Shown: positions 20,691 through 39,985 of the stretch, piece by piece
Layout of the letters: each line of letters opens with the position of its first letter
How positions within the stretch are numbered: position 1 is the stretch's first letter
Source: Gammaproteobacteria bacterium
GTDB taxonomy: Bacteria > Pseudomonadota > Gammaproteobacteria > GCA-001735895
Direction: 5' to 3'
Length of the DNA: 64,000 bases
NCBI GenBank assembly: GCA_024225395.1
Contig: JAAEMR010000105.1
Span: 5,562 to 69,561 of the forward strand
Program-made: the position numbers and the translations under genes
Notes under the pieces: generated by a model
Told to the model about the DNA's origin: nothing
Database searches by the model: none
The model's input: the letters and a program-made list of their open reading frames with translations, nothing else

Positions 20691-22118
20691 TTAACCTGAG
20701 TGTTCCAGTGGCTCTGTTTCCATAAAATCTTCGATATCTACTTCTTCATTTTCAGTTCCGCAGGGATCAACCATATTATGTTGCTTGATGATTCGTCGTA
20801 GACGGGGACGGGATATACCAAGAATCTTGCAACTTTCCCCTTTGTGCCAGTTGGTGAAATTTAATACCCTGGCCACATGAATTTTCTCCATTTCTTCCAG
20901 GCTGGTTTGAACGGGTATACCCGGATCACTATTAATGACGTGTTTTTCACTGATAAATTCAGGAATTAAATCCAGTGTTATGGTGTCGGTGGGTGACAGT
21001 GCAACGGCCTTGGTTAAAACATTTTCCAGCTCACGTACATTGCCCGGCCAGCGATAGCCGTTGAATGAATTAATAACTTCCATAGATAAGCGGCACACTG
21101 AATTGGACATTTCCCGGTTAATTCGTCCCAGTAGATTCTGGATCAGGTCCATAAGATCTTCTTTGCGTTCGCGAAGAGGCGGAATGTTAATATTGACGAC
21201 TTGCAGTCTATAAAACAGGTCTTCTCTGAATAAACCCAGTTTTACCTTTTCCTGAAGATCATTATTGGTTGCCGCGATAATACGGGCATTTGATTTGATG
21301 ACATTTGTGCCACCGACTGGAATGTATTCCTTTTCCTGGATTACGCGTAACAATTTTGCCTGTATGGCGGGTGATAGTTCGCCCACTTCATCCAGAAAAA
21401 GTGTGCCATTTTCAGCTATCGAAAACTTGCCCGGGTGTTTGTTGATGGCTCCGGTAAAGGCTCCTTTTTCATGCCCAAATAAATCGGATTCAAGCAAGCT
21501 TTCTACCAGTGCAGCGCAGTTTACCGCAACATAGGGTCCTTCTGAGCGATTGCTGGATTCATGGATTGCCTTGGCGACCAGTTCCTTACCTGTTCCACTT
21601 TCCCCGGTAATCAGTACATTGATCGGTTTGTTTGCGATCAGACCAATGGTTTTATAAATTTCCCGCATGGCTGTGCTGTGACCTGCCATGCGATTATTGT
21701 TTTTCTGGACTTTGTTGCTGTCTTCTTCGGGTATTGAAAGCTTGGTGTTTTCTTCGTTAGATCTGATTAAAGTGCGTTCTACCGCCTGATCCAGTTCGTT
21801 GATATCGACTGGTTTATGAATGTAATCATCTGCACCATTTTGCATGGCGGCAATGGTGGTTTCCATATCATGATAGGCAGTAATCATGATGATGGGTATA
21901 TTAGGAACAACTTCACGAAAATCAGGCAAACTTTCAAGCCCCGATTTAATTGGCATCTGGTTATCGAGTATGATCAGGTCAATTTCATTTGATGCAGCCG
22001 CCAGCAGTCCATCATTCACACTATGGGCTGTGATGACCTGGTGCGACAGACTGGTGTAGTGCAATTGCAAGGTTCGACAAATTGCAATGTCATCATCAAT
22101 AATCAGCAGTGAACTCAT
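20691..22118 (-). CDS. Sigma54-dependent response regulator (NtrC/AtoC family)
   Basis: Receiver domain (IIDDD..LD..), Walker A GESGTGKE, GAFTGA loop, LFLDEVGE, WPGNVRELEN, C-terminal HTH. Confidence 0.92.
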   Translation of the reverse strand: MSSLLIIDDDIAICRTLQLHYTSLSHQVITAHSVNDGLLAAASNEIDLIILDNQMPIKSGLESLPDFREVVPNIPIIMITAYHDMETTIAAMQNGADDYIHKPVDINELDQAVERTLIRSNEENTKLSIPEEDSNKVQKNNNRMAGHSTAMREIYKTIGLIANKPINVLITGESGTGKELVAKAIHESSNRSEGPYVAVNCAALVESLLESDLFGHEKGAFTGAINKHPGKFSIAENGTLFLDEVGELSPAIQAKLLRVIQEKEYIPVGGTNVIKSNARIIAATNNDLQEKVKLGLFREDLFYRLQVVNINIPPLRERKEDLMDLIQNLLGRINREMSNSVCRLSMEVINSFNGYRWPGNVRELENVLTKAVALSPTDTITLDLIPEFISEKHVINSDPGIPVQTSLEEMEKIHVARVLNFTNWHKGESCKILGISRPRLRRIIKQHNMVDPCGTENEEVDIEDFMETEPLEHSG

Positions 22119-22194
22119 AACTTAAATAAATCTCGGTAATGTTGGGCATCTGACAGGCTCCCCTGAATATCATACGCTTTGTTGAGGAAATTAC

Positions 22195-25137
22195 TCATTG
22201 CGCTGGGTCAATATTTAATTTAACAGTAGCTGTAGTTCCGTCGTTTTCTGCTGACTGTAATTGCAGGGTGCCATGTTGTAACTCTATAAATCGTCTGGCG
22301 ATGGCCAGTCCAAGCCCTGTTCCTTTGGCCCGGCTGGTGTAAAACGGTTCGAATAAATCTTCAACTTTATCATTATCAATCCCGCAACCATTATCCTGAA
22401 TAGTTATTTTAATGTAAGAACTGGTTTCAGTGAGGTCTAGCTGAACGGTAAGATTAATAACAGGTGTTACATCCTGCAGCGATTCTACTGATTGCATGGC
22501 ATTGGTCAGTAGATTGGATATGACCTGGCGTAGTTTTCTTGAATCTGCGTTGATAACGGGTAAACCTTTTTCATACCAGGTATTGATTTTAGCCTTAAAT
22601 AAATCAATGTCTTTCTGCACCAGTCCGATACTGTGCTCAACTACTTTCTGGATATCAATCCATTCGAGCTTAATGGCATCGGGTCGAGAATAACTCATTA
22701 AATCTTCCAGAATCTCTTCCATGTACAGCACCTGTTCAAGTGCAATCTGATTCAGTTCAATGGCATCTTCCTGGCTGATTTTATTGGATTGTTTTTGAAA
22801 AATCTGTAATCCCATTTTGATTGAGGAAAGTGGGTTACGTAAATCATGGGCAATCATGTTGGCCATTTTTCCGACCGTATTCAGTGCCTGATTACGACTT
22901 ATTTCATCATTACGTTGTAGCAATTTGTTTTCCAGTTCGATGCGTGCGGTGAGGTCTATAACGGCTGAAATATTTAATTTTCCTTCCAGGGTAGGGGCTG
23001 AGCTATAGCCTATTTCCACCGGAAAAATTTCCCCAGATTTTTTATGTGCCAGGAAGTCCATGCGATTACCTGATGATTTATCAGTTTCTACCAGGGTGGT
23101 AAGTTGCTGGGATATTAATTGTTTCGCTTCGCTTTTTTCAGGGATGACCAGGCTGATGGACTGCCCTACCAGATCCTCTTCTTCATAACCGTACAGGTTC
23201 TGTAAAGTTTCATTGGTGAGTAAAATTTCACCGTTGGAGTCTGTCATGACCATTGCAACGGGTGCCGAGTTAAAACAATGTTTAAAACGTTCTTCAAGCA
23301 TTTTTTGTTCTGTAATATCTTCTTTTACGGCGAGAAAATGGGTGATTTCACCTTCAGGGTTTTTAATGCCTGAAATAGAAGCAGATTCCCAGTACAGTTC
23401 CCCATTCTTTTTTCGATTATGTAAAATACCACGCCAGATTTCACCCTTTTTGACCTTATTCCATAATTGGGAATAATCTTCTTTACTCATTTCACCAGAT
23501 TTCAGAACACTTGGGTTTAACCCTTTAATATCATCCAGTTTGTAACCGGTTAAATGTTCAAACTTTGGGTTGATATATTCAATTTTACCGTATTGATCAG
23601 TTAACATGACAGAAGCCGGGCTCTGCTCAACTGCTTCTGAAAGATGACGAATTTTTATTTCATTCTCACGATATTGAGTGATGTCTTCGCCCATAAAGAT
23701 CAGACCAATCAGGTTGCCCTCGGTATCTGTCATGGATGTATCATGCCAGCGAATCAGGTATTCATTTCCAATTCGATCCTGTAACCAGCTTTCGTGAGTG
23801 GTGGTGCATTTATTATCATCTTTAGATTGCTGGAAAATTTTGCTACAGATATTTTTATAGCGGTTAACCACCAGCGTTTCTATCCAGTTTTTACCGATAA
23901 GCTGAGCTCTATTCCAGCCCAGTAAATTCAACAGAGAATCATTACAGAAGGAAATATTTCCGTCCAGGTCGACGGCTAAAACATTAAGTTCTATCGATTC
24001 GAGCACTTTTCTGAAGTGTTGTTCAAACTCTACCTGTATTTCAGTAATTTGCTGATTGACTCTTAGACGGGCAATAATATGCGTGCCGAGAAGAAACAGT
24101 GCAAAAATAATCAGGTAGAAAAACAGGTTGTTTCTAATAAAAGCTTTAGGCAGGCTATTGAGTTCTTCGGGTGTAATAAGTGCTATCAAATTCCATGGTT
24201 GATTGTAAGTTTTCGGGTTGGACTGACCACTGTTATATTCTTTACTTAAACCGGTTATTTCCAGCCCTGGATATATTGTAGAGTAACTGAATAAGCCATT
24301 TTGAGTTTCAAATTGGCCAGACTGAGAGCTTGATATCTGTTTCCATTCAGTATTGAAATCAGTAGCAAAACTTTGCTCAAGATCAAGCATAAAACCCCAT
24401 TCAAGATTCCGGTTATGATGACTTAACCAGTAACCTTCATGGTTAAGCAGCATTACATTTTTAGAGATATTTGAGGTGGCAGTACGAAAGTTATTGAGTA
24501 ACCGGTTGCCCAGATAATTCAGAATGAGAACTCCGACTTTGATACCTTTTGAATTAAAAACCGGTGTGCCAAATCGAATAACCGGTTTTAACGGTAATTG
24601 TATCTTTCCATGCTCTATGTTCAGGTCAAAGGGTGAAATATAAATTTCATTACGATTAAGTAACAGGCTTTCTATAAAATAGTACCGGCTTTTTTTATTT
24701 TGTAAATTCTCTTTGTCGACTATTGTTGATTTTCCATTCTGATTATTTATTCGAATGACTTCCATGCCATTTATTCCGATTAATCGTATTTGGTCATAGA
24801 TAATTTTTTTATCTGAAAATAACTGGAAGTCATGGGCCATAATTGCCAGAGTTTTGGCATTCAGATTATCAAAGTAGCCATGTAATTCAGCCTGACGCGC
24901 AAGAAAATTGACGTCTGACTGTATATTCGAAAGCTCGGTGACAATGGTTGTTTTACCAAGTTTTAAATTCAATGTCTGCTGGTTATTGCGCTGAGTGCTT
25001 TCTGATGAGATATAAATGTTGTAGTGGATAGTAATGATGGTTATTAATATGACCATACAGATGAGGGCGTACCACAGGCTCTGCTGTAATATTCGCTGAT
25101 TTTTACTCACATTGTGGTCGTGGTTATGGCTAATCAT
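22195..25137 (-). CDS. Membrane sensor histidine kinase (periplasmic Cache-like domain plus three PAS domains)
   Basis: Two TM segments around a periplasmic domain, three PAS/PAC units, AHDLRNPL H-box, NLLTNA, DNGCG, GTGLGL. Confidence 0.9.
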   Translation of the reverse strand: MISHNHDHNVSKNQRILQQSLWYALICMVILITIITIHYNIYISSESTQRNNQQTLNLKLGKTTIVTELSNIQSDVNFLARQAELHGYFDNLNAKTLAIMAHDFQLFSDKKIIYDQIRLIGINGMEVIRINNQNGKSTIVDKENLQNKKSRYYFIESLLLNRNEIYISPFDLNIEHGKIQLPLKPVIRFGTPVFNSKGIKVGVLILNYLGNRLLNNFRTATSNISKNVMLLNHEGYWLSHHNRNLEWGFMLDLEQSFATDFNTEWKQISSSQSGQFETQNGLFSYSTIYPGLEITGLSKEYNSGQSNPKTYNQPWNLIALITPEELNSLPKAFIRNNLFFYLIIFALFLLGTHIIARLRVNQQITEIQVEFEQHFRKVLESIELNVLAVDLDGNISFCNDSLLNLLGWNRAQLIGKNWIETLVVNRYKNICSKIFQQSKDDNKCTTTHESWLQDRIGNEYLIRWHDTSMTDTEGNLIGLIFMGEDITQYRENEIKIRHLSEAVEQSPASVMLTDQYGKIEYINPKFEHLTGYKLDDIKGLNPSVLKSGEMSKEDYSQLWNKVKKGEIWRGILHNRKKNGELYWESASISGIKNPEGEITHFLAVKEDITEQKMLEERFKHCFNSAPVAMVMTDSNGEILLTNETLQNLYGYEEEDLVGQSISLVIPEKSEAKQLISQQLTTLVETDKSSGNRMDFLAHKKSGEIFPVEIGYSSAPTLEGKLNISAVIDLTARIELENKLLQRNDEISRNQALNTVGKMANMIAHDLRNPLSSIKMGLQIFQKQSNKISQEDAIELNQIALEQVLYMEEILEDLMSYSRPDAIKLEWIDIQKVVEHSIGLVQKDIDLFKAKINTWYEKGLPVINADSRKLRQVISNLLTNAMQSVESLQDVTPVINLTVQLDLTETSSYIKITIQDNGCGIDNDKVEDLFEPFYTSRAKGTGLGLAIARRFIELQHGTLQLQSAENDGTTATVKLNIDPAQ

Positions 25138-25145: not shown

Positions 25146-25493
25146 CTAGTTACATTGATTAAGCATGAAATAATTTAAACGACGAAGATAATCCGGCTTA
25201 CTTTCATCCTGATGCATGGGGTTTAGAAATAATAGTTTAGCCGCAATCATCGTTTGTCTTCTTTGCTCGGTATGTATACTGGCTTCGTCATCTAGTAATT
25301 TAGACAGTTGATGTAAAGTTTGTTGCGGATCTTTGCAAAAACGTGGCAGAGTCACATTACTGGCATACCATTGAGCCATCAGCGATACGGATAACAGGGC
25401 GATTAATACAGGCAGTATGACTTTAAGCGGATTAAAGGGAGCTTTAATTAAACCCTGGGTATGATCTTCTGTCTGTAAAGTCGGTTGGTTCAT
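25146..25493 (-). CDS. Hypothetical membrane-anchored protein
   Basis: One TM segment and two Cys; ATGA overlap with hemY; 8 bp before the kinase start. Confidence 0.65.
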   Translation of the reverse strand: MNQPTLQTEDHTQGLIKAPFNPLKVILPVLIALLSVSLMAQWYASNVTLPRFCKDPQQTLHQLSKLLDDEASIHTEQRRQTMIAAKLLFLNPMHQDESKPDYLRRLNYFMLNQCN

Positions 25494-26908
25494 GGCGTGA
25501 CTCGCTGAACATTAATAGAAACAGTGGTTGTTGATTGATGCGAGTGTTGTCTGAGGGTTGAGTAAACCTGATCTGATACTGATTTAGCCTGAATTATTCT
25601 GTCTCGAATTGAAATACCATGAAGGTAATTAGCCACAAAGTGCAGTCCGTTTGATTGATGTGCCCGGTGTTGTATGGCTTTCGTTAAATCTGAATATTTA
25701 CCATGATATAAAGGCAAGCCCTGCTGATGGCGGTTTATCCTGACCATTTCAGGAGATTGCCTGATACCTGTTAATTTCTGTAAAGATGAAAGAGTCTGAT
25801 CGATGAGCACAGCATCTGATTTTTTTAGCGCGTCCATCTGGCAGCCTCCACCCACAAAATTACTGGTGAGTAATTTATTTTCAGGTGCTCGATGTTTGAC
25901 CAGGTTACTCATCCAGAGGCTACCACGCAAGTCCATGTTTTCCCGACTGGGTATCAGGAAGCCATTTCCATCCAGAGATTTATTTAAGCCTGATTTATCA
26001 AAGCCCATGTGAATTTGGGCGATAGGCGCATATTCAATTTTATTGAGTAGTTCGGCAAGTTTTGACTTTACTGGTTGTAGTAAAGCAGCCGCAATGTTGG
26101 CAGGAGTAGAGAATATTAGCTGTTTAGTTAAATATTGATACTCCTGATTATCTGCTTTACTGGTAACTCTCCATCCTGATTTAGTGGGTTCTACGGCCAA
26201 TACCTTTTGCCCGTTGTGAATATCGGTTAACGGGTTTTGAGAAAGAGTCTGAGTTAATGTTTTCATGCCGCCGGAAAAAGAAAATGCTTCCTGTGGTAAT
26301 CCTTTTTTACCCGGTAATAATTTTTTAGCGATAATGCCAGCCGTGAAACTTCCAAAATTTCTTTCCAGAGAAGTCAGTCGGGGCAGGGTACTACGAGCAC
26401 AGGCTTTTTCAGGGTCACAGGCGAGTACCGCAGAAACATAAGGGTCAATTGCCAGATCCAGAATTTCCTGTCCCAGTCGTCGTCTGATAAATTCTGCGAC
26501 CGTCTCATGATCAGTCATGGAGTGAGACCTGAATGGCTCTGACATTAATTTCAGACGGGTTTTAAGTGAAAATAAATCTGAATATAAAATGCCCCTGATG
26601 TTTTCTGGAACCTGCTTAAGTTGATTGTTTTTTAATACGTATCGCCTGGAAATTTTATTACGATTTACCCTGTAATCCTGCAAGCCAGAACGGCTAATAA
26701 ATTGTGTGACCTGTGTATTGAAATTAAGCACCATGGATGCAGCATGATCGGTGACATAGCCGTCCTGCTGTGTCGTGTCGATCAAACCGCCTGTTCTATC
26801 AGATTGTTCGAGAATTGTTGAGCGAATACCTTTTTGTGCTAACCACCAGGCCGAAGCCAAACCTGATACTCCACCACCAATAATCAATACATCGGTATGT
26901 TTGATCAT
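25490..26908 (-). CDS. hemY: HemY-type proto-/coproporphyrinogen oxidase (FAD)
   Basis: GGGVSGL FAD motif, RTGG, ETVAEFIRRRLG, GGMKTL, GNGFLIP, LPLYH. Start at 26908 gives an ATGA overlap with the radical SAM gene stop (ORF track start is 26938). Confidence 0.8.
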   Translation of the reverse strand: MIKHTDVLIIGGGVSGLASAWWLAQKGIRSTILEQSDRTGGLIDTTQQDGYVTDHAASMVLNFNTQVTQFISRSGLQDYRVNRNKISRRYVLKNNQLKQVPENIRGILYSDLFSLKTRLKLMSEPFRSHSMTDHETVAEFIRRRLGQEILDLAIDPYVSAVLACDPEKACARSTLPRLTSLERNFGSFTAGIIAKKLLPGKKGLPQEAFSFSGGMKTLTQTLSQNPLTDIHNGQKVLAVEPTKSGWRVTSKADNQEYQYLTKQLIFSTPANIAAALLQPVKSKLAELLNKIEYAPIAQIHMGFDKSGLNKSLDGNGFLIPSRENMDLRGSLWMSNLVKHRAPENKLLTSNFVGGGCQMDALKKSDAVLIDQTLSSLQKLTGIRQSPEMVRINRHQQGLPLYHGKYSDLTKAIQHRAHQSNGLHFVANYLHGISIRDRIIQAKSVSDQVYSTLRQHSHQSTTTVSINVQRVTP

Positions 26909-30444: not shown

Positions 30445-30472
30445 GAAATGTGTTATTGATTAAACCAGGCTA

Positions 30473-30601
30473 TTAACCAAATAAAACCCAGTATCCAAAA
30501 AGATAGCTAATTACCAGAATATTAATTGCTGCACCGGCAAAAACGAAATAATCAAAACCTGTCAGGTTCTGGTACCATTTATTTGTTACTACTGTTTTCA
30601 T
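30473..30601 (-). CDS. Small single-pass membrane protein, 42 aa (not in the ORF track)
   Basis: MKTVVTNKWYQNLTGFDYFVFAGAAINILVISYLFGYWVLFG; co-oriented within the operon and fills the gap before the USP gene. Confidence 0.6.
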   Translation of the reverse strand: MKTVVTNKWYQNLTGFDYFVFAGAAINILVISYLFGYWVLFG

Positions 30602-30605
30602 ATTT

Positions 30606-30735
30606 TTTATTCACCACAGAGGACACGGAGGACATAGAAATTATCAGGCTAGAGCTATTCTCAAGCTAGAGCTATTCTCAAGGAGCCTGTATCAACAGGT
30701 TTACCTCTGTGCTCTCTATGACCTCTGTGGTGCAA
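30606..30735. repeat. Intergenic inverted-repeat element with 9-nt periodic arms (copy B), containing a 17-bp tandem duplication
   Basis: TTTATTCACCACAGAGGACACGGAGGACATAG ... CTCTGTGCTCTCTATGACCTCTGTGGTGCAA; GCTAGAGCTATTCTCAA twice at 30648-30681. Confidence 0.65.
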
Positions 30736-30740
30736 TGTCT

Positions 30741-31490: not shown

Positions 31491-31512
31491 CTTAGGATTT
31501 TCATTTATAGTT

Positions 31513-33897
31513 TTATGATACTTCCGCTAATGGAGCTGTACGGTACATTTCTTCAAGCATTTCAATAGCAAATCGTCTTTCATAACTTGTGGGCAGGTCT
31601 GACAGTAATTCAACAAGCCTTGCTGTACCCTGAACAGGTTCTATCGCTTTCAATACGAGTGCCATATCACGAGTTCTTCCACCAGCATTTTTGAATGGAC
31701 TTTGCACAATTTGTTCGATGGCTTTTGCCATTAACTCCTGTTGCTGATTAATTTCTTCCACCATCAGGCAGCGTTTCAGATTACTTACAGCGCTATAACG
31801 AACACCGGCTTCCTTGTCCTGCAGCATGTCGATTAATAAATTCACCCAGTCAGTCAGGGTGATGGGCGTTTCGGGTATGTGGGCGTTTTTAAGCAGTTCG
31901 TCACCATTTAATTCAAGTTCGGTGATGGATTCAATAGCCTGGATACGCAAAGCAGCACGTCTATGTTCTAAAGCCGTCATTAAAATTGGGATGGCAGCAC
32001 GATTATGAATGGCACCAAGGGCCTTGATACAAGCTAGTTTCAAGTCCCACTGTTCATTATGGAACTGGGTAATCAAACCGCCATAGGCGTATTCAATGCC
32101 ACCGATCGTTGGGTTATTCCTGGCTATTTCGGAGATTGAGTCGGCAGCATAAGTACTGAGTTTTATATCTGCTGAATGTAACGCCGTTATCAAGCTATCA
32201 ATCGTTTTCTTTGCTTTCTCTTCTGACAACTGTTCAGGCAGTTTAGCCAGTATTCTGGCAGCCAGATGTTGAACATCCTGGGCCACGGAAATTTCTTCAT
32301 TTTTGTTTTTAAATAACCACTCACCTTTGGTGACGTTATCCTGCACCAGGTTATGAAACTCTTCCATATCAGGGTCCTGTTCGGTTTCACTGTCGTGCTG
32401 ATTATCCGCTTGTTGCAGTTTTTGCTCGACAACAAGGCTATCCTGCATGATAGATTCCAGTGTGGACAAAACTTCTGCAGGCTGGGCTTCTTCGATGGGC
32501 TCTTCCTCGATCTCTTCGGTGATATTTTCAGCTTGCTTGGGCACTAATGATGCAACTTCAATTTCAAGTACCACGCGGCCATTGAGTGTTTCGTTGATGA
32601 TATCCAGCGGTGTTTTTACCTGGGAAGAATCAAATTCTGCCTGATCGATATTTTTCTCAATAGTCATCAAAGCCTGCATGGTAATCAGCCTGATGGGTTG
32701 GTCATTATGGTTGATCAAACGTGTCATTATTCTGGAGATATTGACATTCCATCTGGATATCTGAGCCAGTGTATCGATACAGGTCCTAAGAATTTTATCA
32801 GCAAGTTTGGGTCTTGAAATGAGTTGAATTAAACGAGCTTCAGAGGCTTCCTTATCCGCCAACTTCAGCAATAAGGGTATGGCGGCCAGGATAACAATCT
32901 CATTTTTATCATTAAAGGCTGTGGAAATATGCTCCAGTAACTGTTCATCGCTGAGGTTTACATTTTCTGCCTGTAGAGATTGTAAATAGGTTGCTCTGAC
33001 TTCTGCATCCGGATCATTCAGTAAATGATCATTTGCTTTGTGTTTCGGATTTTTAGAATTAATACCGGCACTGAGTGTGTCATAAGCAGTGATGGCTGCC
33101 TGGCGTACTTTTTCAGAGCGATCCTTTTTTAATAATTCAATGGCTGACAGGTACTTTGTTGCATTTCGACTCACTAATGCCTGTAATGCGTTTAAACGAA
33201 CATCATCTGAGGAATCTGTAAAAGCGGAAGTTAACGCCTTCAGTGATTGTTTTGTGGATGAAAAAGATAACGCATGTGCAGATCTTCTACGGGTAAGAGC
33301 AGATGCATCTTTCAACAGTCCAATCACGCGTTCTTCACCTTCATTGCCGATGGATACCAGGGCATCAAGAATGACATGTTCAATGTCGAGAACATCTTCA
33401 CTATCCAGTAAATTCATTAATACCTGTGTCGCTGGTTGGGCTTTCATTTTTCCCAGTGCAACGATTGCCTCCTTCTGCATGTCCCACCAGTCATCCCAGT
33501 CTTCATTACTATCAATGATCATATTTTGCGGATGATGTTCAGCTATTTCCAGTAAGACTGGAATGCTGGATGGATTTTTAATATCACCCAGTGCTCTTAC
33601 GATGGCTGTTTTTAATTCGCCGTCGGGGTCATTTTTTAATGATTCGATCAATTGAGGTACAACCTTGGTAGCATTCAATTTTCCTAATGCTTCGGCGGCA
33701 TCGATACAAACGTCGATATCTTCATCTCGAAGTTTTATGACCAGATCATTAATGGCCTCAGTAGCACCTATAGTGCCTAATGCCCGACTGGCATTACATT
33801 TATCAACCTCATCACCACTATTCAATAAACCGCGCAGGCTATGCACAACGTTAGTTCTGGGCTCAGTTGAAGGTTTGTCTGTATTTGTTGATAGCAC
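31513..33897 (-). CDS. HEAT/PBS-lyase repeat protein
   Basis: Many D..VR..A..ALG repeats. GTG at 33897 with an AAGGT RBS is preferred because the ORF-track TTG at 33948 lies inside the sigma54 promoter. Confidence 0.8.
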   Translation of the reverse strand: MLSTNTDKPSTEPRTNVVHSLRGLLNSGDEVDKCNASRALGTIGATEAINDLVIKLRDEDIDVCIDAAEALGKLNATKVVPQLIESLKNDPDGELKTAIVRALGDIKNPSSIPVLLEIAEHHPQNMIIDSNEDWDDWWDMQKEAIVALGKMKAQPATQVLMNLLDSEDVLDIEHVILDALVSIGNEGEERVIGLLKDASALTRRRSAHALSFSSTKQSLKALTSAFTDSSDDVRLNALQALVSRNATKYLSAIELLKKDRSEKVRQAAITAYDTLSAGINSKNPKHKANDHLLNDPDAEVRATYLQSLQAENVNLSDEQLLEHISTAFNDKNEIVILAAIPLLLKLADKEASEARLIQLISRPKLADKILRTCIDTLAQISRWNVNISRIMTRLINHNDQPIRLITMQALMTIEKNIDQAEFDSSQVKTPLDIINETLNGRVVLEIEVASLVPKQAENITEEIEEEPIEEAQPAEVLSTLESIMQDSLVVEQKLQQADNQHDSETEQDPDMEEFHNLVQDNVTKGEWLFKNKNEEISVAQDVQHLAARILAKLPEQLSEEKAKKTIDSLITALHSADIKLSTYAADSISEIARNNPTIGGIEYAYGGLITQFHNEQWDLKLACIKALGAIHNRAAIPILMTALEHRRAALRIQAIESITELELNGDELLKNAHIPETPITLTDWVNLLIDMLQDKEAGVRYSAVSNLKRCLMVEEINQQQELMAKAIEQIVQSPFKNAGGRTRDMALVLKAIEPVQGTARLVELLSDLPTSYERRFAIEMLEEMYRTAPLAEVS

Positions 33898-33931: not shown

Positions 33932-33948
33932 TGCATGAATAGTGCCAA
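33932..33948 (-). promoter_or_regulatory. Sigma54 (-24/-12) promoter for the leftward HEAT...hemY...NtrC arm
   Basis: Minus strand TTGGCACTATTCATGCA = GG-N10-GC with a TGGCAC core. Confidence 0.75.
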
Positions 33949-33966
33949 AAGGAATCTGTCTTTATC

Positions 33967-33979
33967 TAAGTTATTGATT
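33967..33979 (-). promoter_or_regulatory. IHF binding site (left)
   Basis: AATCAATAACTTA matches WATCAANNNNTTR; lies between the left sigma54 promoter and the enhancer sites. Confidence 0.55.
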
Positions 33980-34035
33980 AATTGCGGTTTAAACTTATTT
34001 TATCTGTTTGATATGGGAGCACTATCATGCTCCGA

Positions 34036-34147
34036 TTGAATGATTCGTTACATTCAATTTGAACAAAAAAAGCAGTTGAACGAATCGTTCAACTACCGAG
34101 AGTAGCATGATTTGATCAGGCAAAATTAAAGTTTTGAACATTTCGTT
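34036..34147. promoter_or_regulatory. Candidate enhancer (UAS) sites for the NtrC-type activator
   Basis: Palindrome AGTTGAACGA-A-TCGTTCAACT at 34074-34094, plus related TTGAATGATTCGTT (34036) and TTGAACATTTCGTT (34134). Confidence 0.6.
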
Positions 34148-34217
34148 AATTTTTTCAGGGCTTAGATTTTTGCTTTTTTATCTGAAGTTAAATACTGGCG
34201 GAATCATTTTATTTTTC

Positions 34218-34230
34218 TAAGTAATTGATT
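34218..34230 (-). promoter_or_regulatory. IHF binding site (right)
   Basis: AATCAATTACTTA matches WATCAANNNNTTR; lies between the enhancer sites and the right sigma54 promoter. Confidence 0.55.
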
Positions 34231-34282: not shown

Positions 34283-34299
34283 TTGGCAGGAAAATTGCA
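34283..34299 (+). promoter_or_regulatory. Sigma54 (-24/-12) promoter for the rightward cydA-like arm
   Basis: TTGGCAGGAAAATTGCA = GG-N10-GC with TTGCA; about 34 bp before the first small ORF. Confidence 0.75.
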
Positions 34300-34332: not shown

Positions 34333-34494
34333 ATGTCTGATAAAGAGAACGAAGCACAACAAGATGCAATGGAATCAGCACACGATGAGTCAACCACCTG
34401 GGGACCGAAACTATTTTACGGCGTATTAATTGCCGTTTTAGTCTTTTTCTGGTGGATGGTTATTTATCCTCATGGCGTAGCGCCTACTCATTAA
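34333..34494 (+). CDS. Small single-pass membrane protein, 53 aa (not in the ORF track)
   Basis: AGGA RBS; MSDKENEAQQDAMESAHDESTTWGPKLFYGVLIAVLVFFWWMVIYPHGVAPTH. Confidence 0.7.
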   Translation: MSDKENEAQQDAMESAHDESTTWGPKLFYGVLIAVLVFFWWMVIYPHGVAPTH

Positions 34495-34560: not shown

Positions 34561-34695
34561 ATGAATATGAAGAATCCACTGATTAACTGGGTACTTGCTA
34601 TTGTGATAGTCGTAGCGATTTTTTACGGGCTTAACCACGGGGTGATGTCGATGCAGGGTTTGCCATTAAACATAGATTTAACGCCAGCTCAATAA
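34561..34695 (+). CDS. Small single-pass membrane protein, 44 aa (not in the ORF track)
   Basis: AAGGT RBS; MNMKNPLINWVLAIVIVVAIFYGLNHGVMSMQGLPLNIDLTPAQ. Confidence 0.65.
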   Translation: MNMKNPLINWVLAIVIVVAIFYGLNHGVMSMQGLPLNIDLTPAQ

Positions 34696-34716: not shown

Positions 34717-36603
34717 ATGAATCCAGGTTTATCAATTAATAACAATTTCAGGGTTGTTCTTAGTTTACTTTTTGCCTTGATGCTGGCGACAGTGTTTTCC
34801 CTGTCATTTTCGGACAGTGTTTATGCTGCAACTGGAACATCCAGTATTGAGGACAGGATTCGCTCGGTGGATACCGGTGGCCTGACAGCTGAACAATTTC
34901 AGGTCGAACCGAAAGAAGTCGGCTTTCCTCCTTTTTCAGCACCAAAATTAAAAACTAAAGATTATCCCAAGATTATGGGTGTGAGCAGTCGTTCGATTGT
35001 CTGGGTAGTTGCCCAGATGCATCTGTTTTTTGCAGCCTTTGTTCTGGCCGTTCCATTGTTTGTGCTGGTTATCGAATGGATTGGGGTTAAGTCCGGCGAT
35101 GAACGTTATGACGACATGGCGCATGAGTGTATGAAAATCAGTATGACTGCCTTTTCCATTACAGCTATTTTTGGTGGTTTACTGGCGTTTGCGTTATTCA
35201 TTTTATATCCACAGTTTATGGGTTACATGATGAATGTGTTTAACACCCAGGTGCTGCTGTATGCGCTGTTATTTTTTGCAGAAAGCTTTTTTCTGTATCT
35301 CTATTACTACAGCTGGTATGCCTACCGTTGGGGTAATAAGAAATGGGTACACCTGACTTTAGGTCTTATGCTCAATGTGGTTGGAACGACTATCCTTTTA
35401 CTGGCAAATGCCTGGGTCACTTTCATGATGGCACCTTCCGGTGTGGATGATACTGGAGCTGTTACCGGTGGAATCTGGGAAATCATCCGTGGCCCTTTAT
35501 GGAACCCTATTAACTTACACCGCTTCATCGCCAACATTGCTTTTGGTGGAGCTGTTATTGGTGCTTATGCGGCCTATAAATTTCTGTCGGCTACCGACTT
35601 AAGAGCCAGGGCACATTACGACTGGATGGGTTACACCGCTAATTTTATCGCGATTCTGGCATTCTTACCGTTGCCGTTTGCAGGTTACTGGTTGATGGCT
35701 GAAATCTATGCCTATTCTCAGCAAATGGGCATTACCGCGATGGGTGGAATTCTGGCCTGGCTGTTTATTGTTCAGGCCGTGTTGATTGGTACCATTTTAC
35801 TGGCGGGTAATTATTATTTGTGGTCCGGTATGTCGCGGACTCAAGGTTCATCACGATATACCTGGATGATTAAATATATTGCGATGGTGCTGGTGACCTG
35901 TTTCCTGATCTGGGTAACACCCCATACGTTAATTTTAAGTGCTTCAGAGATGAAGTTGCTGGGCGGTAGTCATCATCATTTACTTGGGCCTCTGGGCATC
36001 ATGCCGGCCAAGAATATCGCAGTAAATCTGATGCTGATCTTTACCTTCCTGTCTTTTCAGTTATATAGACGATCGGATAAAGAGGTCACTGTTGGCTGGG
36101 CAGGCTTTGGTAATGCGTTGATGGTTAGTATTTATGTGGTCGCCATTGTTAACGTAATTTTTGCTGGAGTGTATTACGGCTATTTTACCAATACTGTTTA
36201 TAAAGTAGGTTCCAGTGTGACTCAGGTGGTTTCAACGCTGGTGGTTATTGTTTCCGGTGTCATCATCGATACCTATATGTTTAAAGGTGCGAAAACATTG
36301 CCATCGGAATGGGGAAAAGTTTCTAACCGGGCACAATATGCCTTGTTTGCATTACCCGTCGCATTTACCTGGTTGATGGCGTTGATGGGTTATGTTCGTT
36401 CATCGGTCAGAACCAACTGGCATGTGTACACGGTGATGAAAGATAACTCGCCGGATAATTATATTCCTGCCATTGGATTTGCCGGAAACATGATGACGAT
36501 TGTGACTGTATTATTCCTGATCTGTGTGTTATTTATTTTCTGGGTAGCGTCTTTGAGTGAGACAAAACAGTCCAGACCCGCTTTTCTGACGGGAGATAAA
36601 TAA
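34717..36603 (+). CDS. Cytochrome bd subunit I (CydA)-like protein, divergent bd-like type with no CydB partner
   Basis: AQMHLFF (His19-like), FFAES, ANAW..FM..P, NLHRF (His186-like), GYVRSSVRTNW in place of GW..AE.GRQPW; many TM helices; ATG at 34717 with AAGGT RBS. Confidence 0.75.
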   Translation: MNPGLSINNNFRVVLSLLFALMLATVFSLSFSDSVYAATGTSSIEDRIRSVDTGGLTAEQFQVEPKEVGFPPFSAPKLKTKDYPKIMGVSSRSIVWVVAQMHLFFAAFVLAVPLFVLVIEWIGVKSGDERYDDMAHECMKISMTAFSITAIFGGLLAFALFILYPQFMGYMMNVFNTQVLLYALLFFAESFFLYLYYYSWYAYRWGNKKWVHLTLGLMLNVVGTTILLLANAWVTFMMAPSGVDDTGAVTGGIWEIIRGPLWNPINLHRFIANIAFGGAVIGAYAAYKFLSATDLRARAHYDWMGYTANFIAILAFLPLPFAGYWLMAEIYAYSQQMGITAMGGILAWLFIVQAVLIGTILLAGNYYLWSGMSRTQGSSRYTWMIKYIAMVLVTCFLIWVTPHTLILSASEMKLLGGSHHHLLGPLGIMPAKNIAVNLMLIFTFLSFQLYRRSDKEVTVGWAGFGNALMVSIYVVAIVNVIFAGVYYGYFTNTVYKVGSSVTQVVSTLVVIVSGVIIDTYMFKGAKTLPSEWGKVSNRAQYALFALPVAFTWLMALMGYVRSSVRTNWHVYTVMKDNSPDNYIPAIGFAGNMMTIVTVLFLICVLFIFWVASLSETKQSRPAFLTGDK

Positions 36604-37475
36604 TGAATTTACCTGTCAGAAAGTTACGTAAAACTCAATCCGGTACGGTTTTATTTAATATTTTACTATTCAGTTTTTCTTTAACTCTGGTGTTTACACT
36701 GGTAGCTAATTTATTACCCCAGGTGGAAGGCGAAGCACCGCTAGAAGTGGAAATTGATTTGAGCGCGATGACGATGGATAGTTTTGTTTCCCTGGGAGAA
36801 AACATCTTTTCCGGTAAAGGCACCTGCACACTGTGTCATAACAACATGGGACGTGCACCGGATATTTTACAGCTCAGTATGGTGGAAACCGCGAAACAAC
36901 GGTTGGCAGATGAACGTTATAAAGGTGTTGCCACAACAGTTGAAGATTATTTTCGTGAATCGATGGTAGACCCGAGTCTTTACGTGGTTGCAGGTTTTGG
37001 CCAGAAAGGTAGCAACGATACAGTTTCGCCCATGCCTGTTGCTAATAAAGCACCCATTTTATTAACAGATATTGAAATGGATGCAGTGATTGCATTTATG
37101 CAGGCTAAAGATGGAAATGATGTCACCGTTTCTCTACCGGAAGGATTACCTGAAACTGTGGCAGAAGAGCAGGGTGGAGCTACCGCCGTGGCAGCTGTAC
37201 AGGGACCGGCTGAAACAGCAGAACAAGCGTTGGCTAAATTTACCTGCACCGCCTGTCATGCTGTTGCGGGCAGTGAATCGATGGTAGGACCTGAGTTGAA
37301 CACAGTCGGTAGTCGACTGGACAAAGATCAAATTCGCGAGAGTATTTTGAACCCTGAAGCTGTCATTACCGAGGGCTTTGATGGTGGCATGATGCCAGCC
37401 GATTTTGCAAAGAAAATGACCATCAGTGAGTTGGACATGGTGACTGAGTACTTACTCAAACAGGGAGGACAGTAA
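36603..37475 (+). CDS. Membrane-anchored dihaem cytochrome c
   Basis: N-terminal TM; CTLCH and CTACH; YFRES..DP and IRESILNP motifs with downstream MP; 1-bp overlap with the cydA-like gene. Confidence 0.85.
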   Translation: MNLPVRKLRKTQSGTVLFNILLFSFSLTLVFTLVANLLPQVEGEAPLEVEIDLSAMTMDSFVSLGENIFSGKGTCTLCHNNMGRAPDILQLSMVETAKQRLADERYKGVATTVEDYFRESMVDPSLYVVAGFGQKGSNDTVSPMPVANKAPILLTDIEMDAVIAFMQAKDGNDVTVSLPEGLPETVAEEQGGATAVAAVQGPAETAEQALAKFTCTACHAVAGSESMVGPELNTVGSRLDKDQIRESILNPEAVITEGFDGGMMPADFAKKMTISELDMVTEYLLKQGGQ

Positions 37476-37477: not shown

Positions 37478-39880
37478 ATGAGAATCCCTGTTTTATTACA
37501 GGCCGTTCTGGTCATAGTTATTGCTTACCTGGTTTTAGATAATGCTTTTCCACCAGTATTGCCTCAAACCCTGATGATTCAGTACATGCTGATCACGGTG
37601 GTCGGCGTATTACTGTATTTTTCTTTTGATGATGAGCGCTGGGCAGAGTTTTTATCACCCATTCAGGCTGTTTTACGCAATGACAATCAATGGCTGTTAC
37701 GTGGATTTTTCCTTATTGCAATTCCGGTTTTAGTAGGCTGGGTCACTTTTCAGATCGTTAGACCTTCACTCGATTCTCCCATCGAGCTGCGCCAGGTGCA
37801 TCCGGCACCGCCATCCAGTCTTAATGTTTTTAACAAAAAGTATGATCTAACCAGTCTTGAAAATCCGATTCGAGCGGAAGTTATTGAAAAATATCCAACT
37901 GATAAAGATGCCGCGATGCAGGTTTATAACGATGGTGTGTTAGCGGGCAGGGACGTTTATTACCAGAACTGTTTTTATTGTCATGGTGATTTACTCGATG
38001 GCACCGGACCTTTTGCCGATGGTTTTACCAATCCACTGCCCATCAACTTTCAGGATGTAGGCACGATTGCGCAGTTACAGGAAGCCTTTTTGTTCTGGCG
38101 TATTTCTACCGGTGGTCCCGGGTTACCTAAAGAAGGCACACCGTGGAATTCAGCCATGCCCGTCTGGCATGAATTTTTGAATGAGAATGACGTGTGGAAT
38201 GTGATTACTTTTTTATACGATTATGTCGGGCAGGTTCCGAGAATCTGGGATCAGAATCAGTCCAAAATTGCTTCGGCAATCAAAGATGAGCTGGTATCCG
38301 AACGTGCCTCCATGATGGGAAAGGAGCTGTACGAATTTCGTTGTACCGTTTGTCACGGTGAGCAGGGTATGGCCGATGGGGTTGCTGCAGAACGAATGTA
38401 TCCTAGACCACGTGATTTTACGCTGGGACTGTTTAAATATAAAACCACTCCAGGTTCTTTACCCCCGAGTGATGATGACCTGTTGAATACTATTAAACAT
38501 GGTCTGACGGAAACGGGAATGCCTGGCTGGAGTAGTTTATTATCGGATGCACAGATTAAAAGTTTGGTCCCGGTGATTAAAGGTTTTGATATTGCCGCTA
38601 CCTGGCCACCTGAGGATGCGGATGATGACGCTTTTGATGATGATGGGCGTTATATCAAAGATGATTTTATATCTATAACTGAACGTGAACCTTTTGAAGG
38701 TGCTATCGATTACACCCCCGAATCACTGGTGCGTGGTAAAGAAGTGTTTGATAAAGCCTGTAAGGAATGTCATGGGGCGGAAGGCCGTGGCAATATCACG
38801 TCAGGCAAACGACTGGAAGATGACTGGGGCTATAGAATCTGGCCACGTGATTTGACCAAAGCCTGGACATATCGTGTGTCTGAAATTGAAAATGCAGACC
38901 CTGTCGTAGCGCGTAGTCAGACGATCCAGCGTATTTATGAACGTTTATCCATAGGTATTACCGGAACGCCGATGCCTGCTCACCGGGCAGTGGAAGAGGG
39001 TAATAAGGACCCCATCAGTCTGGATGATCGCTGGCATGTGTCGAACTATGTTTACTCCCTAAGAGAAACAGCAGCTCCGGTGCCGGGAGAATCCAATGTT
39101 TTATCTGCCAGTAAAGTAAGCAGTTTACCAACTGATGTGAATTCCGAGCAATGGGACCAGGCAAAGCCTGTTAGTTTCCGCCTGGTGCCAAATATCATCA
39201 AAGGTGAGCGTCATTTCACCCCGTTGTCGGATTCAGTCACGGTACGCTCGGTTTATAGTAAAGATAAAATAGCCTTCTTACTGGAAGTGGATGATCGAAC
39301 TGACAGCCGTCCGGGTGAACCCGTATCAGATGGCATTCAGGATGAAAATTTAACGATGTACTCTGATGCTTTAGCGGTTCAATTTCCTAAGCAGAATGCC
39401 TTTGAAACTTCACCGGTGGTGGTTAAACCTTTATACCGTCACGGTGATAAAAAGCATGAAACGACCATCTGGTACTGGAATGCAGGCAGCATACAACCTG
39501 AAAAGAAATCGATGTCAGCGCTGATAGATGCAAGTGGTCCGGATCAAAAACTGAAATTTCGTGAAGCCGGTGATTTGAATGCAGCGGGTTCATGGACTCA
39601 TGGTAAGTGGAAAGTGATGTTTACCCGACCTCGATTGAGCAGTGAAGGTAATGACGTGATTTTCGATGAAGGTCAGTTCATTCCAGTTTCATTCGCAAAC
39701 TGGGATGGCAGCAATGGCGAAGTGGGCTCTAAACATACCCTGACCACCTGGTACTGGCTGGTATTACCTCCTGAAACCAACTGGATGAAAGTTGCAGGTA
39801 TCCCACTAGGAATCGCTCTGTTTATCTTTCTGGCAGGATTAATGTTAGTCAACTCGCAACGCAAACTGGCTAAACAATAA
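37478..39880 (+). CDS. Membrane-bound trihaem cytochrome c fused to an ethylbenzene-dehydrogenase gamma-like (haem b DOMON, NxrC-like) domain
   Basis: Three N-terminal TM segments; CFYCH, CTVCH, CKECH; PRPRDFT; C-terminal SDALAVQFP, GKWKVMFTRP, SFANWDGSNGE..SK; C-terminal TM. Confidence 0.8.
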   Translation: MRIPVLLQAVLVIVIAYLVLDNAFPPVLPQTLMIQYMLITVVGVLLYFSFDDERWAEFLSPIQAVLRNDNQWLLRGFFLIAIPVLVGWVTFQIVRPSLDSPIELRQVHPAPPSSLNVFNKKYDLTSLENPIRAEVIEKYPTDKDAAMQVYNDGVLAGRDVYYQNCFYCHGDLLDGTGPFADGFTNPLPINFQDVGTIAQLQEAFLFWRISTGGPGLPKEGTPWNSAMPVWHEFLNENDVWNVITFLYDYVGQVPRIWDQNQSKIASAIKDELVSERASMMGKELYEFRCTVCHGEQGMADGVAAERMYPRPRDFTLGLFKYKTTPGSLPPSDDDLLNTIKHGLTETGMPGWSSLLSDAQIKSLVPVIKGFDIAATWPPEDADDDAFDDDGRYIKDDFISITEREPFEGAIDYTPESLVRGKEVFDKACKECHGAEGRGNITSGKRLEDDWGYRIWPRDLTKAWTYRVSEIENADPVVARSQTIQRIYERLSIGITGTPMPAHRAVEEGNKDPISLDDRWHVSNYVYSLRETAAPVPGESNVLSASKVSSLPTDVNSEQWDQAKPVSFRLVPNIIKGERHFTPLSDSVTVRSVYSKDKIAFLLEVDDRTDSRPGEPVSDGIQDENLTMYSDALAVQFPKQNAFETSPVVVKPLYRHGDKKHETTIWYWNAGSIQPEKKSMSALIDASGPDQKLKFREAGDLNAAGSWTHGKWKVMFTRPRLSSEGNDVIFDEGQFIPVSFANWDGSNGEVGSKHTLTTWYWLVLPPETNWMKVAGIPLGIALFIFLAGLMLVNSQRKLAKQ

Positions 39881-39958
39881 GCTGTTGTCTCCCAAATGTC
39901 GGGTGAAGCCGTGAAAGCGGGTTTACCAGTCATGCTTTGTTTTGAAATTAAGCATTTT

Positions 39959-39985
39959 AACTGGCCTTTTGGCCAGTTTTTTTTT
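39959..39985 (+). terminator. Rho-independent terminator of the cydA-like arm
   Basis: AACTGGCC-TTTT-GGCCAGTT stem-loop followed by a T run. Confidence 0.75.

Follow-up and report, generated by a model that had tools for sequence, protein, structure and literature searches.

What does a cytochrome bd-type gene do when it has no CydB partner, is followed by genes for c-type cytochromes and faces, across a shared control region, a set of genes akin to those of late haem synthesis? This question is raised by a cluster at positions 20691-39985 of the window, the 64-kb stretch of DNA analysed here (contig JAAEMR010000105.1 of the gammaproteobacterial assembly GCA_024225395.1), to which all open reading frames (ORFs), domain scans (Pfam, NCBIfam) and coordinates refer. 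We propose, at a probability of about 0.5, that the cluster encodes a bd-like terminal reductase which is fed by cytochrome c and cupredoxin, has dedicated late-haem-type maturation genes, and works with an enzyme of the iodate reductase (Idr) type under one regulator.

ORF lists and domain scans resolve two arms that diverge from a control region of ~435 bp, and every gene that a previous, sequence-only reading of this DNA had named was recovered where it had been placed:

20691..22118, minus strand: NtrC-type sigma54-dependent response regulator (the activator), with Pfam Response_reg, Sigma54_activat (GAFTGA) and HTH_8 (Fis-type helix-turn-helix) domains
22195..25137, minus strand: sensor PAS histidine kinase, with two transmembrane (TM) helices around a periplasmic HK_sensor_dom_bact domain, three PAS domains, HisKA and HATPase_c
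25146..25493, minus strand: 115-aa single-TM protein, followed by tblastn synteny; no Pfam or NCBIfam match
25490..26938, minus strand: HemY-type FAD protoporphyrinogen oxidase homologue (TIGR00562)
26905..28179, minus strand: radical SAM/SPASM enzyme with a C-terminal PCP_red domain (Pfam; NCBIfam NirJ2 and AhbD below cut-off)
28297..30444, minus strand: USP-PCP_red protein, cytoplasmic, two USP domains and then the PCP_red repeats (four solid, one weak)
30473..30601, minus strand: 42-aa TM protein between the cupredoxin and USP-PCP_red genes (ORF, tblastn)
30741..31490, minus strand: exported protein with a predicted type-1-copper cupredoxin domain (fold search, ligand set) and a C-terminal CarboxypepD_reg-like beta-sandwich
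31513..33897, minus strand: HEAT/PBS-lyase-type repeat protein, ~795 aa, cytoplasmic (Pfam HEAT_2, HEAT_PBS)
33933..33947, minus strand: sigma54-type -24/-12 element of the left arm, one mismatch to TGGCAC-N5-TTGC
33961..34230, no strand: enhancer region with palindromes and two 19-nt boxes
34284..34298, plus strand: sigma54-type -24/-12 element of the right arm; the first start codon follows after 35 nt
34333..34494, plus strand: 53-aa single-TM protein, predicted small subunit of the CydA-like protein (synteny, motif, complex model)
34561..34695, plus strand: 44-aa single-TM protein (ORF, tblastn)
34717..36603, plus strand: CydA-like protein, 628 aa, ~13-14 TM helices (PF01654, fold)
36603..37475, plus strand: membrane-anchored dihaem cytochrome c (two CxxCH motifs)
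37478..39880, plus strand: 800-aa trihaem cytochrome c and EB_dh protein (Pfam, NCBIfam)
39959..39978, plus strand: intrinsic-terminator-like hairpin and T run at the end of the right arm

Genes overlap at the HemY/115-aa, radical SAM/HemY and CydA-like/dihaem junctions, and gaps of 2-8 nt are found at two more. The HEAT gene probably starts at a GTG at 33897, downstream of the promoter-like site, within an ORF that stays open to 33948. The EB_dh protein consists of N-terminal TM helices, three CxxCH cytochrome c domains that resemble, by NCBIfam, those of CcoP (the electron-entry subunit of cbb3 oxidases), an EB_dh haem-b domain like the gamma subunit of type II dimethyl sulfoxide reductases (TIGR03477 match), and a C-terminal TM anchor.

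The CydA-like protein can be placed in the cytochrome bd superfamily by both sequence and fold. It matches PF01654 (Cyt_bd_oxida_I) at 72.5 bits (cut-off 26.2), over profile positions 2-251 of 418 only, and the ten best PDB fold matches of its structure model (pLDDT 67.4) are all CydA chains, with E from 1e-6 to 6e-4. Aligned with solved CydA (5DOQ, 9R2G) through a profile of 23 relatives, H102 and H268 coincide with haem-ligand histidines (helices 1 and 5) and are invariant in 76/76 sequences, and E189 coincides with a channel glutamate. Across these 76 sequences, which reach down to ~52% identity, 175 positions are at least 95% conserved, seven histidines among them; homologues number more than 6,000, the best 120 being 72-100% identical. 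The genome, which is 98.85% complete, holds no second CydA-type gene and, in keeping with the sequence-only reading, no CydB (PF02322), and the profile match ends before the Q-loop, so that the protein falls outside canonical CydAB on both counts. Nor can it be assigned to the OR-C family, which needs haem c motifs within CydA; the CydA-like protein has none.

With 13-14 hydrophobic segments, no CxxCH motif, and c-type cytochrome and EB_dh genes downstream, the predicted protein fits the OR-N-type branch of the superfamily as this is described in the literature, and the likeness to Nitrospira-type proteins that had been noticed earlier is, as far as sequence can tell, borne out. The text of Murali et al. 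gives OR-N no quinol site, 14 TM helices in the N1/N2 types and operons with alternative electron donors, and states that the oxygen-reduction architecture and an equivalent of His19 are kept while quinol-site features are absent. OR-N is seen as a putative O2 reductase that would oxidise cytochrome c in Nitrospirota and Nitrospinota, and the review passages that treat it still call it uncharacterised; the right arm is a member of this known but uncharacterised kind. Its closest described counterparts are the NIDE0901-like OR-N (N1/N2) ‘CydAA’ proteins of those two phyla, which share with it, in the published account by Murali, Gennis and Hemp, a CydA without quinol loop, ~14 TM helices, no haem c motif, the His19 equivalent, and a place in one operon beside genes for c-type cytochromes and an NxrC/EB_dh-like protein. 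Copies in metagenome-assembled genomes of Nitrospirota and Nitrospinota are 55-60% identical to the CydA-like protein and have the same three-gene right arm. The present cluster differs in that a single CydA-like gene occurs without a second CydA' paralogue, and in that its hosts are sulfur-oxidising and heterotrophic Gamma- and Alphaproteobacteria; the HEAT/cupredoxin/USP-PCP_red/radical-SAM/HemY arm, the sigma54 two-component switch and the Idr-type partner also set it apart from OR-N as so far described in that account. With canonical CydAB(X/S) the protein shares the fold, the four-helix haem core, residues that align with two ligand histidines and one channel glutamate, and a predicted single-TM small subunit, whereas it has no CydB, no recognisable Q-loop, ~5 extra TM helices, five further invariant histidines, and cytochrome c partners in place of quinol.

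That small subunit is probably the 53-aa protein, the gene for which stands upstream of the CydA-like gene in 40/72 loci with enough flank, with a motif conserved in gamma, alpha and Nitrospirota copies. In the complex model it is predicted to lie against helices 206-228 and 254-266 of the CydA-like protein (ipSAE 0.81, best control 0.00; the ipSAE mark applied is reached by 58/80 solved complexes and 2/110 mismatched pairs), the model runs sharing at least 77% of contacts with a partner pLDDT of at least 74; since bd oxidases with small subunits have been solved, this result may reflect likeness to them rather than binding. For the 44-aa protein, tblastn matches were found in 24/72 loci, and for the 42-aa protein of the left arm at the same position in nine loci and one alpha genome.

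Do the two arms belong together? A pattern scan found at least 592 genomes with a relative of the CydA-like gene, from which 80 loci were kept for tblastn with the window proteins and for ORF clustering; we sort these by CydA identity into a gamma-type tier (at least 70%), a mostly alphaproteobacterial tier (60-69%) and a tier of other lineages (below 60%). Downstream of the CydA-like gene come the dihaem and EB_dh genes, without exception in the 62 loci with at least 3.5 kb on that side (26/26, 14/14 and 22/22 by tier). In the gamma-type tier USP-PCP_red lies upstream on the opposite strand in 16/16 loci, and USP-PCP_red, radical SAM and HemY genes are all present in 11/11 loci with both flanks. 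The alphaproteobacterial tier has a left arm in 0/8 fetched flanks, yet USP-PCP_red is found 2-3 kb beyond in 5/5 genomes; the order in 2/2 extended loci is molybdoenzyme, HEAT, cupredoxin, (42-aa), USP-PCP_red, radical SAM, HemY, which is the window's own order made collinear. Among the other lineages (Thermodesulfobacteriota, ‘Deltaproteobacteria’, Burkholderiales, Rhodospirillaceae) the radical SAM and USP-PCP_red genes are kept in 6/8 loci, downstream and co-directional or convergent. Left and right arms are thus linked across phyla in three gene orders. A HEAT family member is present in 34/81 clustered sequences (the 80 loci and the window), and in alpha-type loci the 115-aa gene, by tblastn, sits directly upstream of the small TM and CydA-like genes on the same strand.

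At the level of genomes, 16 of 400 Gammaproteobacteria carry the CydA-like gene, 14 carry USP-PCP_red and 13 carry both, on the same contig in 12/13. The sequence-only reading had taken the two arms for one unit and a failure of their genes to co-occur as the argument against it; because both arms are found together in genomes and at loci, that argument fails. USP-PCP_red tracks the CydA-like gene (13/14 genomes that carry USP-PCP_red) more closely than an IdrA-like gene (11/14). The distribution of the CydA-like gene is patchy, with 15/321 genera positive and both same-family genomes searched negative, and tblastn found no match in the plasmid collection. Some loci in other lineages depart from the single three-gene set: L064, L066 and L071 have two tandem CydA-like/dihaem/EB_dh sets, and in many loci of the below-60% tier the EB_dh protein is split into two ORFs, with extra mono- and dihaem cytochromes (families f13 and f14) after it.

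That the unit is not fully self-contained, as it had been thought to be, became apparent from the same ORF clustering, in which three frequent families are missing from the window: two dihaem peroxidases of MauG/CCP type (Pfam, NCBIfam), a Rieske subunit (arsenite_ox_S, above cut-off) and a molybdoenzyme of ~890-900 aa with a 3Fe-4S ‘Rieske_3’ N-domain, which scores 400.6-412.9 bits with arsenite_ox_L (TIGR02693; cut-off 359.05). Where at least 9 kb of flank is available, a co-directional molybdoenzyme gene is found downstream in 12/15 loci of the gamma-type tier, 11/11 of the 60-69% tier and 0/16 of the below-60% tier. A SCO1/SenC gene stands between the EB_dh and peroxidase genes in 11 loci. 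Pairwise distances of CydA-like proteins and molybdoenzymes correlate (Spearman 0.81; 17 loci, 136 non-independent pairs), and among the 16 CydA-positive gamma genomes 11 have an IdrA-like gene, on a shared contig in 8/11.

The genome from which the window comes has such a module too. Its four idr-like genes run from 11836 to 15393 of L089 to the end of contig C183 and continue at the start of C238 (L090, 2-2416), alone between housekeeping genes; the AioAB-like large and Rieske subunits stand with two dihaem peroxidases, which is the synteny of idrABP1P2. A sigma54-like site lies 74 nt upstream of this operon, and a similar site is found in 17/30 relatives. The text of Reyes-Umana et al. (PMC8692401) defines idr clusters by AioAB-like genes with two peroxidases and uses this synteny to separate Idr from arsenite oxidase. 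On this ground the identity of AioAB, for which the above-cut-off scores with TIGR02693 (400.6, 412.9) would speak, was rejected, as two peroxidase genes directly precede the Rieske gene. The sequence-only reading was right that the window itself encodes no molybdopterin subunit and that a molybdoenzyme might be encoded elsewhere; the NarG/NxrA-type partner it had in mind is rejected, the partner being AioA-like. Its overall view of the cluster as one unit with sigma54 hallmarks, a CydA without CydB and putative tetrapyrrole enzymes stands, while full self-containment and the NarG/NxrA-type partner have to be given up.

What is published on such enzymes gives the module a candidate substrate. 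Roseovarius azorensis reduces iodate, and a 99.4-kDa IdrA was present in a band excised from an activity stain (Kine et al., PMC11445184); according to the text of that report, induction took static culture (low oxygen) and iodate, induced cells did not reduce iodate aerobically, and its authors suggest that the enzyme is oxygen-sensitive. With the idrABP1P2 clusters of Pseudomonas sp. SCT, Denitromonas sp. IR-12 and R. azorensis the partner module shares an AioA-like protein of ~890-900 aa (which agrees in size with that 99.4-kDa IdrA), a Rieske subunit and two peroxidases in one operon, so that the likeness is one of gene set and size. It differs from published idr, described as a small four-gene island with poorly conserved surroundings, in its neighbour: most marine gamma and alpha relatives have the module joined to a bd-like cluster of ~19 kb.

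A common switch for the two arms is suggested by their control region, where phylogenetic footprinting across orthologous regions supports the divergon architecture. There are five one-mismatch matches to TGGCAC-N5-TTGC in the window, and two of these flank the control region and point outwards (33947-33933, minus; 34284-34298, plus). In the orthologous intergenic regions of 20 related loci (21 regions with the window), an outward GG-N10-GC site is found near each end in 20/21, and sigma54-type sites there number 1.95 per 450 bp, the background across the entire loci being 0.40, an enrichment of putative promoters that exceeds chance. For the enhancer motif 10 matches were counted where 2.6 are expected. 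In the enhancer region the palindrome TTGAAC-N5-GTTCAA is present as a perfect 17-mer at 34076-34092 and as degenerate copies at 34036 and 34134; it recurs with at most one mismatch in 18/21 regions, and of nine exact copies in 1.21 Mb of related loci eight lie inside the 20 control regions. Two copies of a 19-nt box (33961-33979, 34212-34230) flank the palindromes; they fit the IHF consensus and are presumably IHF-like boxes. The genome has one rpoN gene, and the activator has the AAA+ sigma54-interaction domain with GAFTGA. All the sequence hallmarks of a sigma54-dependent divergent promoter, as proposed earlier for this locus, are therefore in place: paired sites, palindromic enhancer, activator and rpoN.

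The ninth exact palindrome lies in locus L003, ~335 nt upstream of the first peroxidase gene and with a sigma54-like site nearby; this repeat of the divergon palindrome at an idr-like operon is a hint, and the only direct one in the sequences, that one activator may serve all three transcription units. Orthologues of the activator (56-60% identity) close the left arm in 3/4 gamma genomes fetched, and in L030, and kinase and activator come after HemY in 3/4 gamma genomes extended. Neither protein receives a specific NCBIfam name, generic matches below cut-off (NtrC/AtoC for the activator) being all that was obtained. In L095 (G196:C7:536000-553000), from a gamma genome with the bd-like cluster and no IdrA-like match, the left arm stops at HemY, and the 115-aa protein, kinase and activator are absent from the following ~11 kb; this single case only hints that the regulator may travel with the Idr-type module. 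Elsewhere in the genome under study the exact palindrome occurs only at C27:8693 and C147:2546, both intergenic and by eye with no sigma54-type site beside them, and these could be further targets of the activator.

AhbD/NirJ-type and HemY-type enzymes catalyse consecutive late steps of haem synthesis, and putative enzymes of both types are encoded in the left arm, as the sequence-only reading had it. The HemY homologue scores 257.9 bits with TIGR00562 (cut-off 97.85), which places it within the equivalog, and its best solved relative is Myxococcus protoporphyrinogen oxidase (2IVD, E 5.9e-54). It is the sole above-cut-off match in the genome, and a HemJ-family gene is present on contig C10, so that the HemY copy is an additional one. 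The radical SAM enzyme has the CxxxCxxC core and SPASM domain of AhbD and NirJ, and its best matches are haem b synthase types (NirJ2 305.9 and AhbD 281.7 bits); both stay under the NCBIfam cut-off of 500. It differs from that family in falling below every cut-off and in its extra PCP_red domain, and we do not count it a member; at best it works like AhbD/NirJ. Its PCP_red domain matches 2KRU, the C-terminal domain of BchB, and a hidden Markov model built from radical SAM C-termini finds four solid repeats and one weak one in the USP protein, much as the fivefold PCP_red of the first description had suggested. Unlike AhbD and HemY of haem biosynthesis, the pair is cluster-specific and stands beside a five-repeat PCP_red protein, with the HemJ-family gene elsewhere. 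On the plainest reading these enzymes would be a late-haem line of the cluster's own, which supplies or hands over haem to a system that is very rich in it; on a bolder one they make a modified cofactor. Atlas clusters that combine Usp and PCP_red occur in Pseudomonadota and Nitrospinota; in some of them 14-23% of members also carry RUBY_RBDX (rubrerythrin-type rubredoxin), and one is commonest in Nitrospinota.

The cupredoxin was the weakest item in the earlier gene list, since Pfam and the PDB sequence profile miss the domain and see only the C-terminal beta-sandwich. It is nevertheless likely to be one: the AlphaFold model (pLDDT 84.4) finds pseudoazurin, amicyanin and plastocyanin by Foldseek at probability 1.00 (TM 0.5-0.66 on target), and H137, C179, H182 and M185 are invariant in 16/16 sequences. 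The modelled fold together with this His/Cys/His/Met set points to a type-1 copper site, and the cupredoxin-like call was well founded.

We suggest the following working model. The right arm would form a membrane complex of an OR-N-type bd-like core without CydB, one or two single-TM subunits, the dihaem cytochrome c and the trihaem-c/EB_dh subunit. This complex would draw periplasmic electrons from c-type cytochromes and the co-encoded blue-copper protein, for use at a haem site of the conserved four-helix core in reducing a small oxidant, most likely O2, or else a reactive oxygen or iodine species. The left arm would supply the HEAT protein as a scaffold along with the cupredoxin; the AhbD/NirJ2-like radical SAM enzyme and HemY-type oxidase could serve the complex as a pair of late-haem-pathway type, and the two proteins with PCP_red, in BchB the domain that caps the tetrapyrrole, would be engaged in making the tetrapyrrole cofactor or handing it over. 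The PAS kinase and NtrC-type activator, the latter binding TTGAAC-N5-GTTCAA, would switch on both predicted sigma54 promoters. The bd-like unit may thereby be the membrane partner of the periplasmic Idr-type system (AioAB-like molybdoenzyme and two dihaem peroxidases), the two modules acting as one inducible low-oxygen respiratory system in which the molybdoenzyme would reduce iodate while the bd-like complex would dispose of O2 or other oxidants, conserve energy from them and shield an oxygen-sensitive reductase.

Several observations weigh against this proposal. Five of the 16 CydA-positive gamma genomes have no IdrA-like match (one of them is only 69% complete), 2/9 genomes with an IdrA-like protein of at least 70% identity lack the CydA-like gene, and of eight loci outside Alpha- and Gammaproteobacteria just one has the molybdoenzyme near the cluster; on the first two counts the Idr partnership has to be called frequent, not obligatory. 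In the genome under study the bd-like and idr-like modules are on different contigs, and no palindrome with up to two mismatches lies in the 400-440 bp upstream of the idr-like operon. The text of PMC8692401 reports, moreover, that genes around idrABP1P2 are poorly conserved. In the CydA-like protein the other channel or ligand glutamate position is an invariant tyrosine (Y182), and the quinol-loop and Met-ligand region is unrecognisable because the Pfam match ends at position 251 of 418. As no OR-N enzyme has been characterised, going by the reviews mentioned above, reduction of O2 is a property borrowed from the canonical family. To our knowledge no tetrapyrrole-binding role has been demonstrated for PCP_red outside BchB, and as the radical SAM enzyme misses every NCBIfam cut-off, a maturation role is something that we infer. 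There is no Chlor_dismutase-family gene in the genome, so the published route from hypoiodous acid to O2 has no candidate enzyme here, and an O2-releasing step that depends on chlorite dismutase was rejected for this organism. Finally, nine COX1-family matches on seven contigs (three on C149) in a genome of 4.45 Mb, an unusually large set of haem-copper oxidase or NOR-type proteins, mean that an extra oxidase is not obviously needed. The last two findings also bear on the kind of role to be expected: with nine COX1 matches and no chlorite dismutase gene, we favour a special function alongside the Idr-type enzyme, in which the complex would remove O2 or oxidants, shield the reductase and add to energy conservation, over that of a general-purpose oxidase.

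Some of these observations would suit a different explanation, namely that the complex is a stand-alone high-affinity terminal oxidase, another cytochrome c oxidase for microoxic growth, which came to lie next to idr genes by co-transfer of low-oxygen genes on an island. The CydA-positive genomes and loci of other phyla with no Idr-type gene at hand, the separation of the cluster from the idr-like operon in its own genome, and the patchy spread, which fits a mobile accessory module, are all compatible with it, as is the discussion of OR-N, in the sources consulted, as the main oxidase of Nitrospirota and Nitrospinota. Mere co-transfer sits poorly with the fact that Idr linkage is kept in two gene orders, divergent in gamma loci and collinear in alpha loci, where the left-arm genes follow the molybdoenzyme gene; with sigma54-type sites at all three transcription units; and with the exact repeat in L003 of the enhancer palindrome upstream of peroxidase genes. 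We consider a stand-alone oxidase unlikely, albeit the most serious competitor of the Idr-coupled reductase.

Electrons might also flow the other way through the complex, the CydA-like protein oxidising quinol at a non-canonical site and feeding molybdoenzyme and peroxidases by a chain of haem b and five haems of c type, which would make of the complex an alternative complex III and no oxidase. Such an electron-input module would explain the long haem wire (five c haems and the EB_dh haem b, on membrane-anchored subunits) and the replacement of one channel glutamate; EB_dh domains are known to wire type II molybdoenzymes, as the TIGR03477 match recalls, and Idr enzymes, by the account in PMC8692401, need a periplasmic donor. 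Yet OR-N, as Murali et al. describe it, has no quinol-site features and retains the oxygen-reduction architecture with the His19 equivalent; the c-type domains resemble the subunit through which electrons enter cbb3 oxidases; and in other phyla the cluster is present with no reductase nearby. These points make quinol oxidation by the complex decidedly improbable.

A lithotrophic chain is a further alternative, in which the AioAB-like enzyme would oxidise a high-potential donor (arsenite, or iodide or hypoiodous acid towards iodate), the electrons reaching O2 at the bd-like oxidase by way of the Rieske subunit, the cupredoxin and the c haems, in the manner of nitrite oxidation with OR-N. The molybdoenzyme does score above the arsenite oxidase equivalog cut-off (400.6-412.9 against 359), azurin is arsenite oxidase's named partner and a cupredoxin is encoded here, and a cluster of dehydrogenase, carriers and oxidase follows the usual logic of lithotrophic chains; aio operons, too, are under sigma54 two-component control. 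OR-N has, in the literature on nitrite oxidisers to hand, been tied to high-potential donors. The two dihaem peroxidases, however, are a mark of iodate reductase clusters that arsenite oxidase neighbourhoods lack in the account of PMC8692401, and a Roseovarius whose IdrA agrees in size is an iodate reducer that depends on low oxygen for this (PMC11445184), so that we hold an oxidative direction to be very unlikely. A complex for detoxifying NO or other nitrosative or oxidative stress, which takes up the NO reductase considered in the sequence-only reading, is the least probable: the literature credits canonical bd oxidases with tolerance of NO and peroxide, USP domains (which would mark a stress regulon) are present and the activator matches the NorR model at 318 bits, below its cut-off of 476, but no nitrogen-oxide enzyme recurs in any of the 80 clustered neighbourhoods, the regulator has a receiver domain and not a domain of NO-sensing type, and nothing specific to NO was found.

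Returning to the Idr-coupled bd-like reductase, we also consider a more far-reaching form of it, speculative and at present improbable. The three modules might together be a complete iodine-oxyanion respiratory machine, with the bd-like (possibly haem-copper) complex as the missing membrane-bound, energy-conserving step that reduces hypoiodous acid or an iodate-derived oxidant, using a non-standard tetrapyrrole that the AhbD-like radical SAM enzyme and HemY would make and PCP_red modules would carry; run in reverse, it could draw electrons from iodide or hypoiodite oxidation and so provide a biological route to marine iodate. If true, experimenters would moreover have a first workable model of the OR-N oxidases that nitrite oxidisers rely on.

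The wider interest of the cluster is that OR-N bd-like enzymes are, in the literature cited, the proposed terminal oxidases of Nitrospira- and Nitrospina-type nitrite oxidisers, organisms that are hard to manipulate. A three-gene core of this kind in cultivated Gamma- and Alphaproteobacteria, with fixed accessory genes, a defined regulatory switch and a likely partner, the Idr-type enzyme, that lends itself to assay, therefore opens the OR-N question to knock-out and purification. Candidate cultivable carriers include strains of Sedimenticola hydrogenitrophicus and Aestuariirhabdus (loci L027, L028 and L060). For much of the marine Alpha- and Gammaproteobacteria our results further suggest a ~25-kb system of which the iodate reduction island known from the literature, with its four genes, makes up just a third; this matters for the question of how reduction of iodate is linked to oxygen and to the conservation of energy. 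In the literature searched, with the supplements and figures of Murali and Reyes-Umana falling outside its scope, no bd-like oxidase is joined with protoporphyrinogen oxidase, radical SAM/HEAT/USP proteins or iodate, nor idrA with cytochrome bd; PCP_red/PF08369 is not used there in the sense meant here, and the symbiont and iodate papers contain nothing on the cluster. Within that same body of work the fixed accessory arm, the sigma54 enhancer design and the systematic link to idr-type genes were not found and appear to be new.

Sequence of both arms is present in an RNA library: a DNase-treated marine metatranscriptome contains 11 contigs of at least 99% identity, which fall on the activator, kinase, USP-PCP_red, HEAT, CydA-like and EB_dh genes. 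One contig of 1103 nt covers 30472-31574 and spans the 42-aa and cupredoxin genes. This shows presence in the library; it is not proof of transcription and says nothing of levels. Run X10, presumed to be RNA, yielded no match, and several bins of run X7 lack cover, neither of which speaks on expression. Within the activator gene, at 21020-21480, the DNA run X3 has many loose ends and one contig joint that skips 21050-21447; the likeliest cause is cross-mapping of conserved AAA+ activator genes from other organisms (90% likeness), not a variant of the locus.

Directly to the left of the activator gene, at 16690-20453 on the plus strand, lies another redox set; its members are a multihaem cytochrome c (672 aa, c7/MtrC-like) in fusion with a membrane domain of cytochrome b561 type, a dihaem cytochrome c, and an ankyrin-repeat protein that is secreted. 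These flanking genes, with those for a 122-aa protein and a rhodanese, were considered as members of the unit and rejected, one rhodanese match being their only counterpart in the 80 loci, whose gamma flanks end short of there. The window also contains a RuBisCO large-subunit gene at ~47316-48242 on the minus strand (C105:52877-53803), with a second copy on contig C69, and a class II fructose-bisphosphate aldolase gene at 41326-42504; together with AprBA-type genes on C183 these fit a Calvin-cycle sulfur oxidiser, in keeping with the Calvin-cycle host that had been supposed from the sequence.

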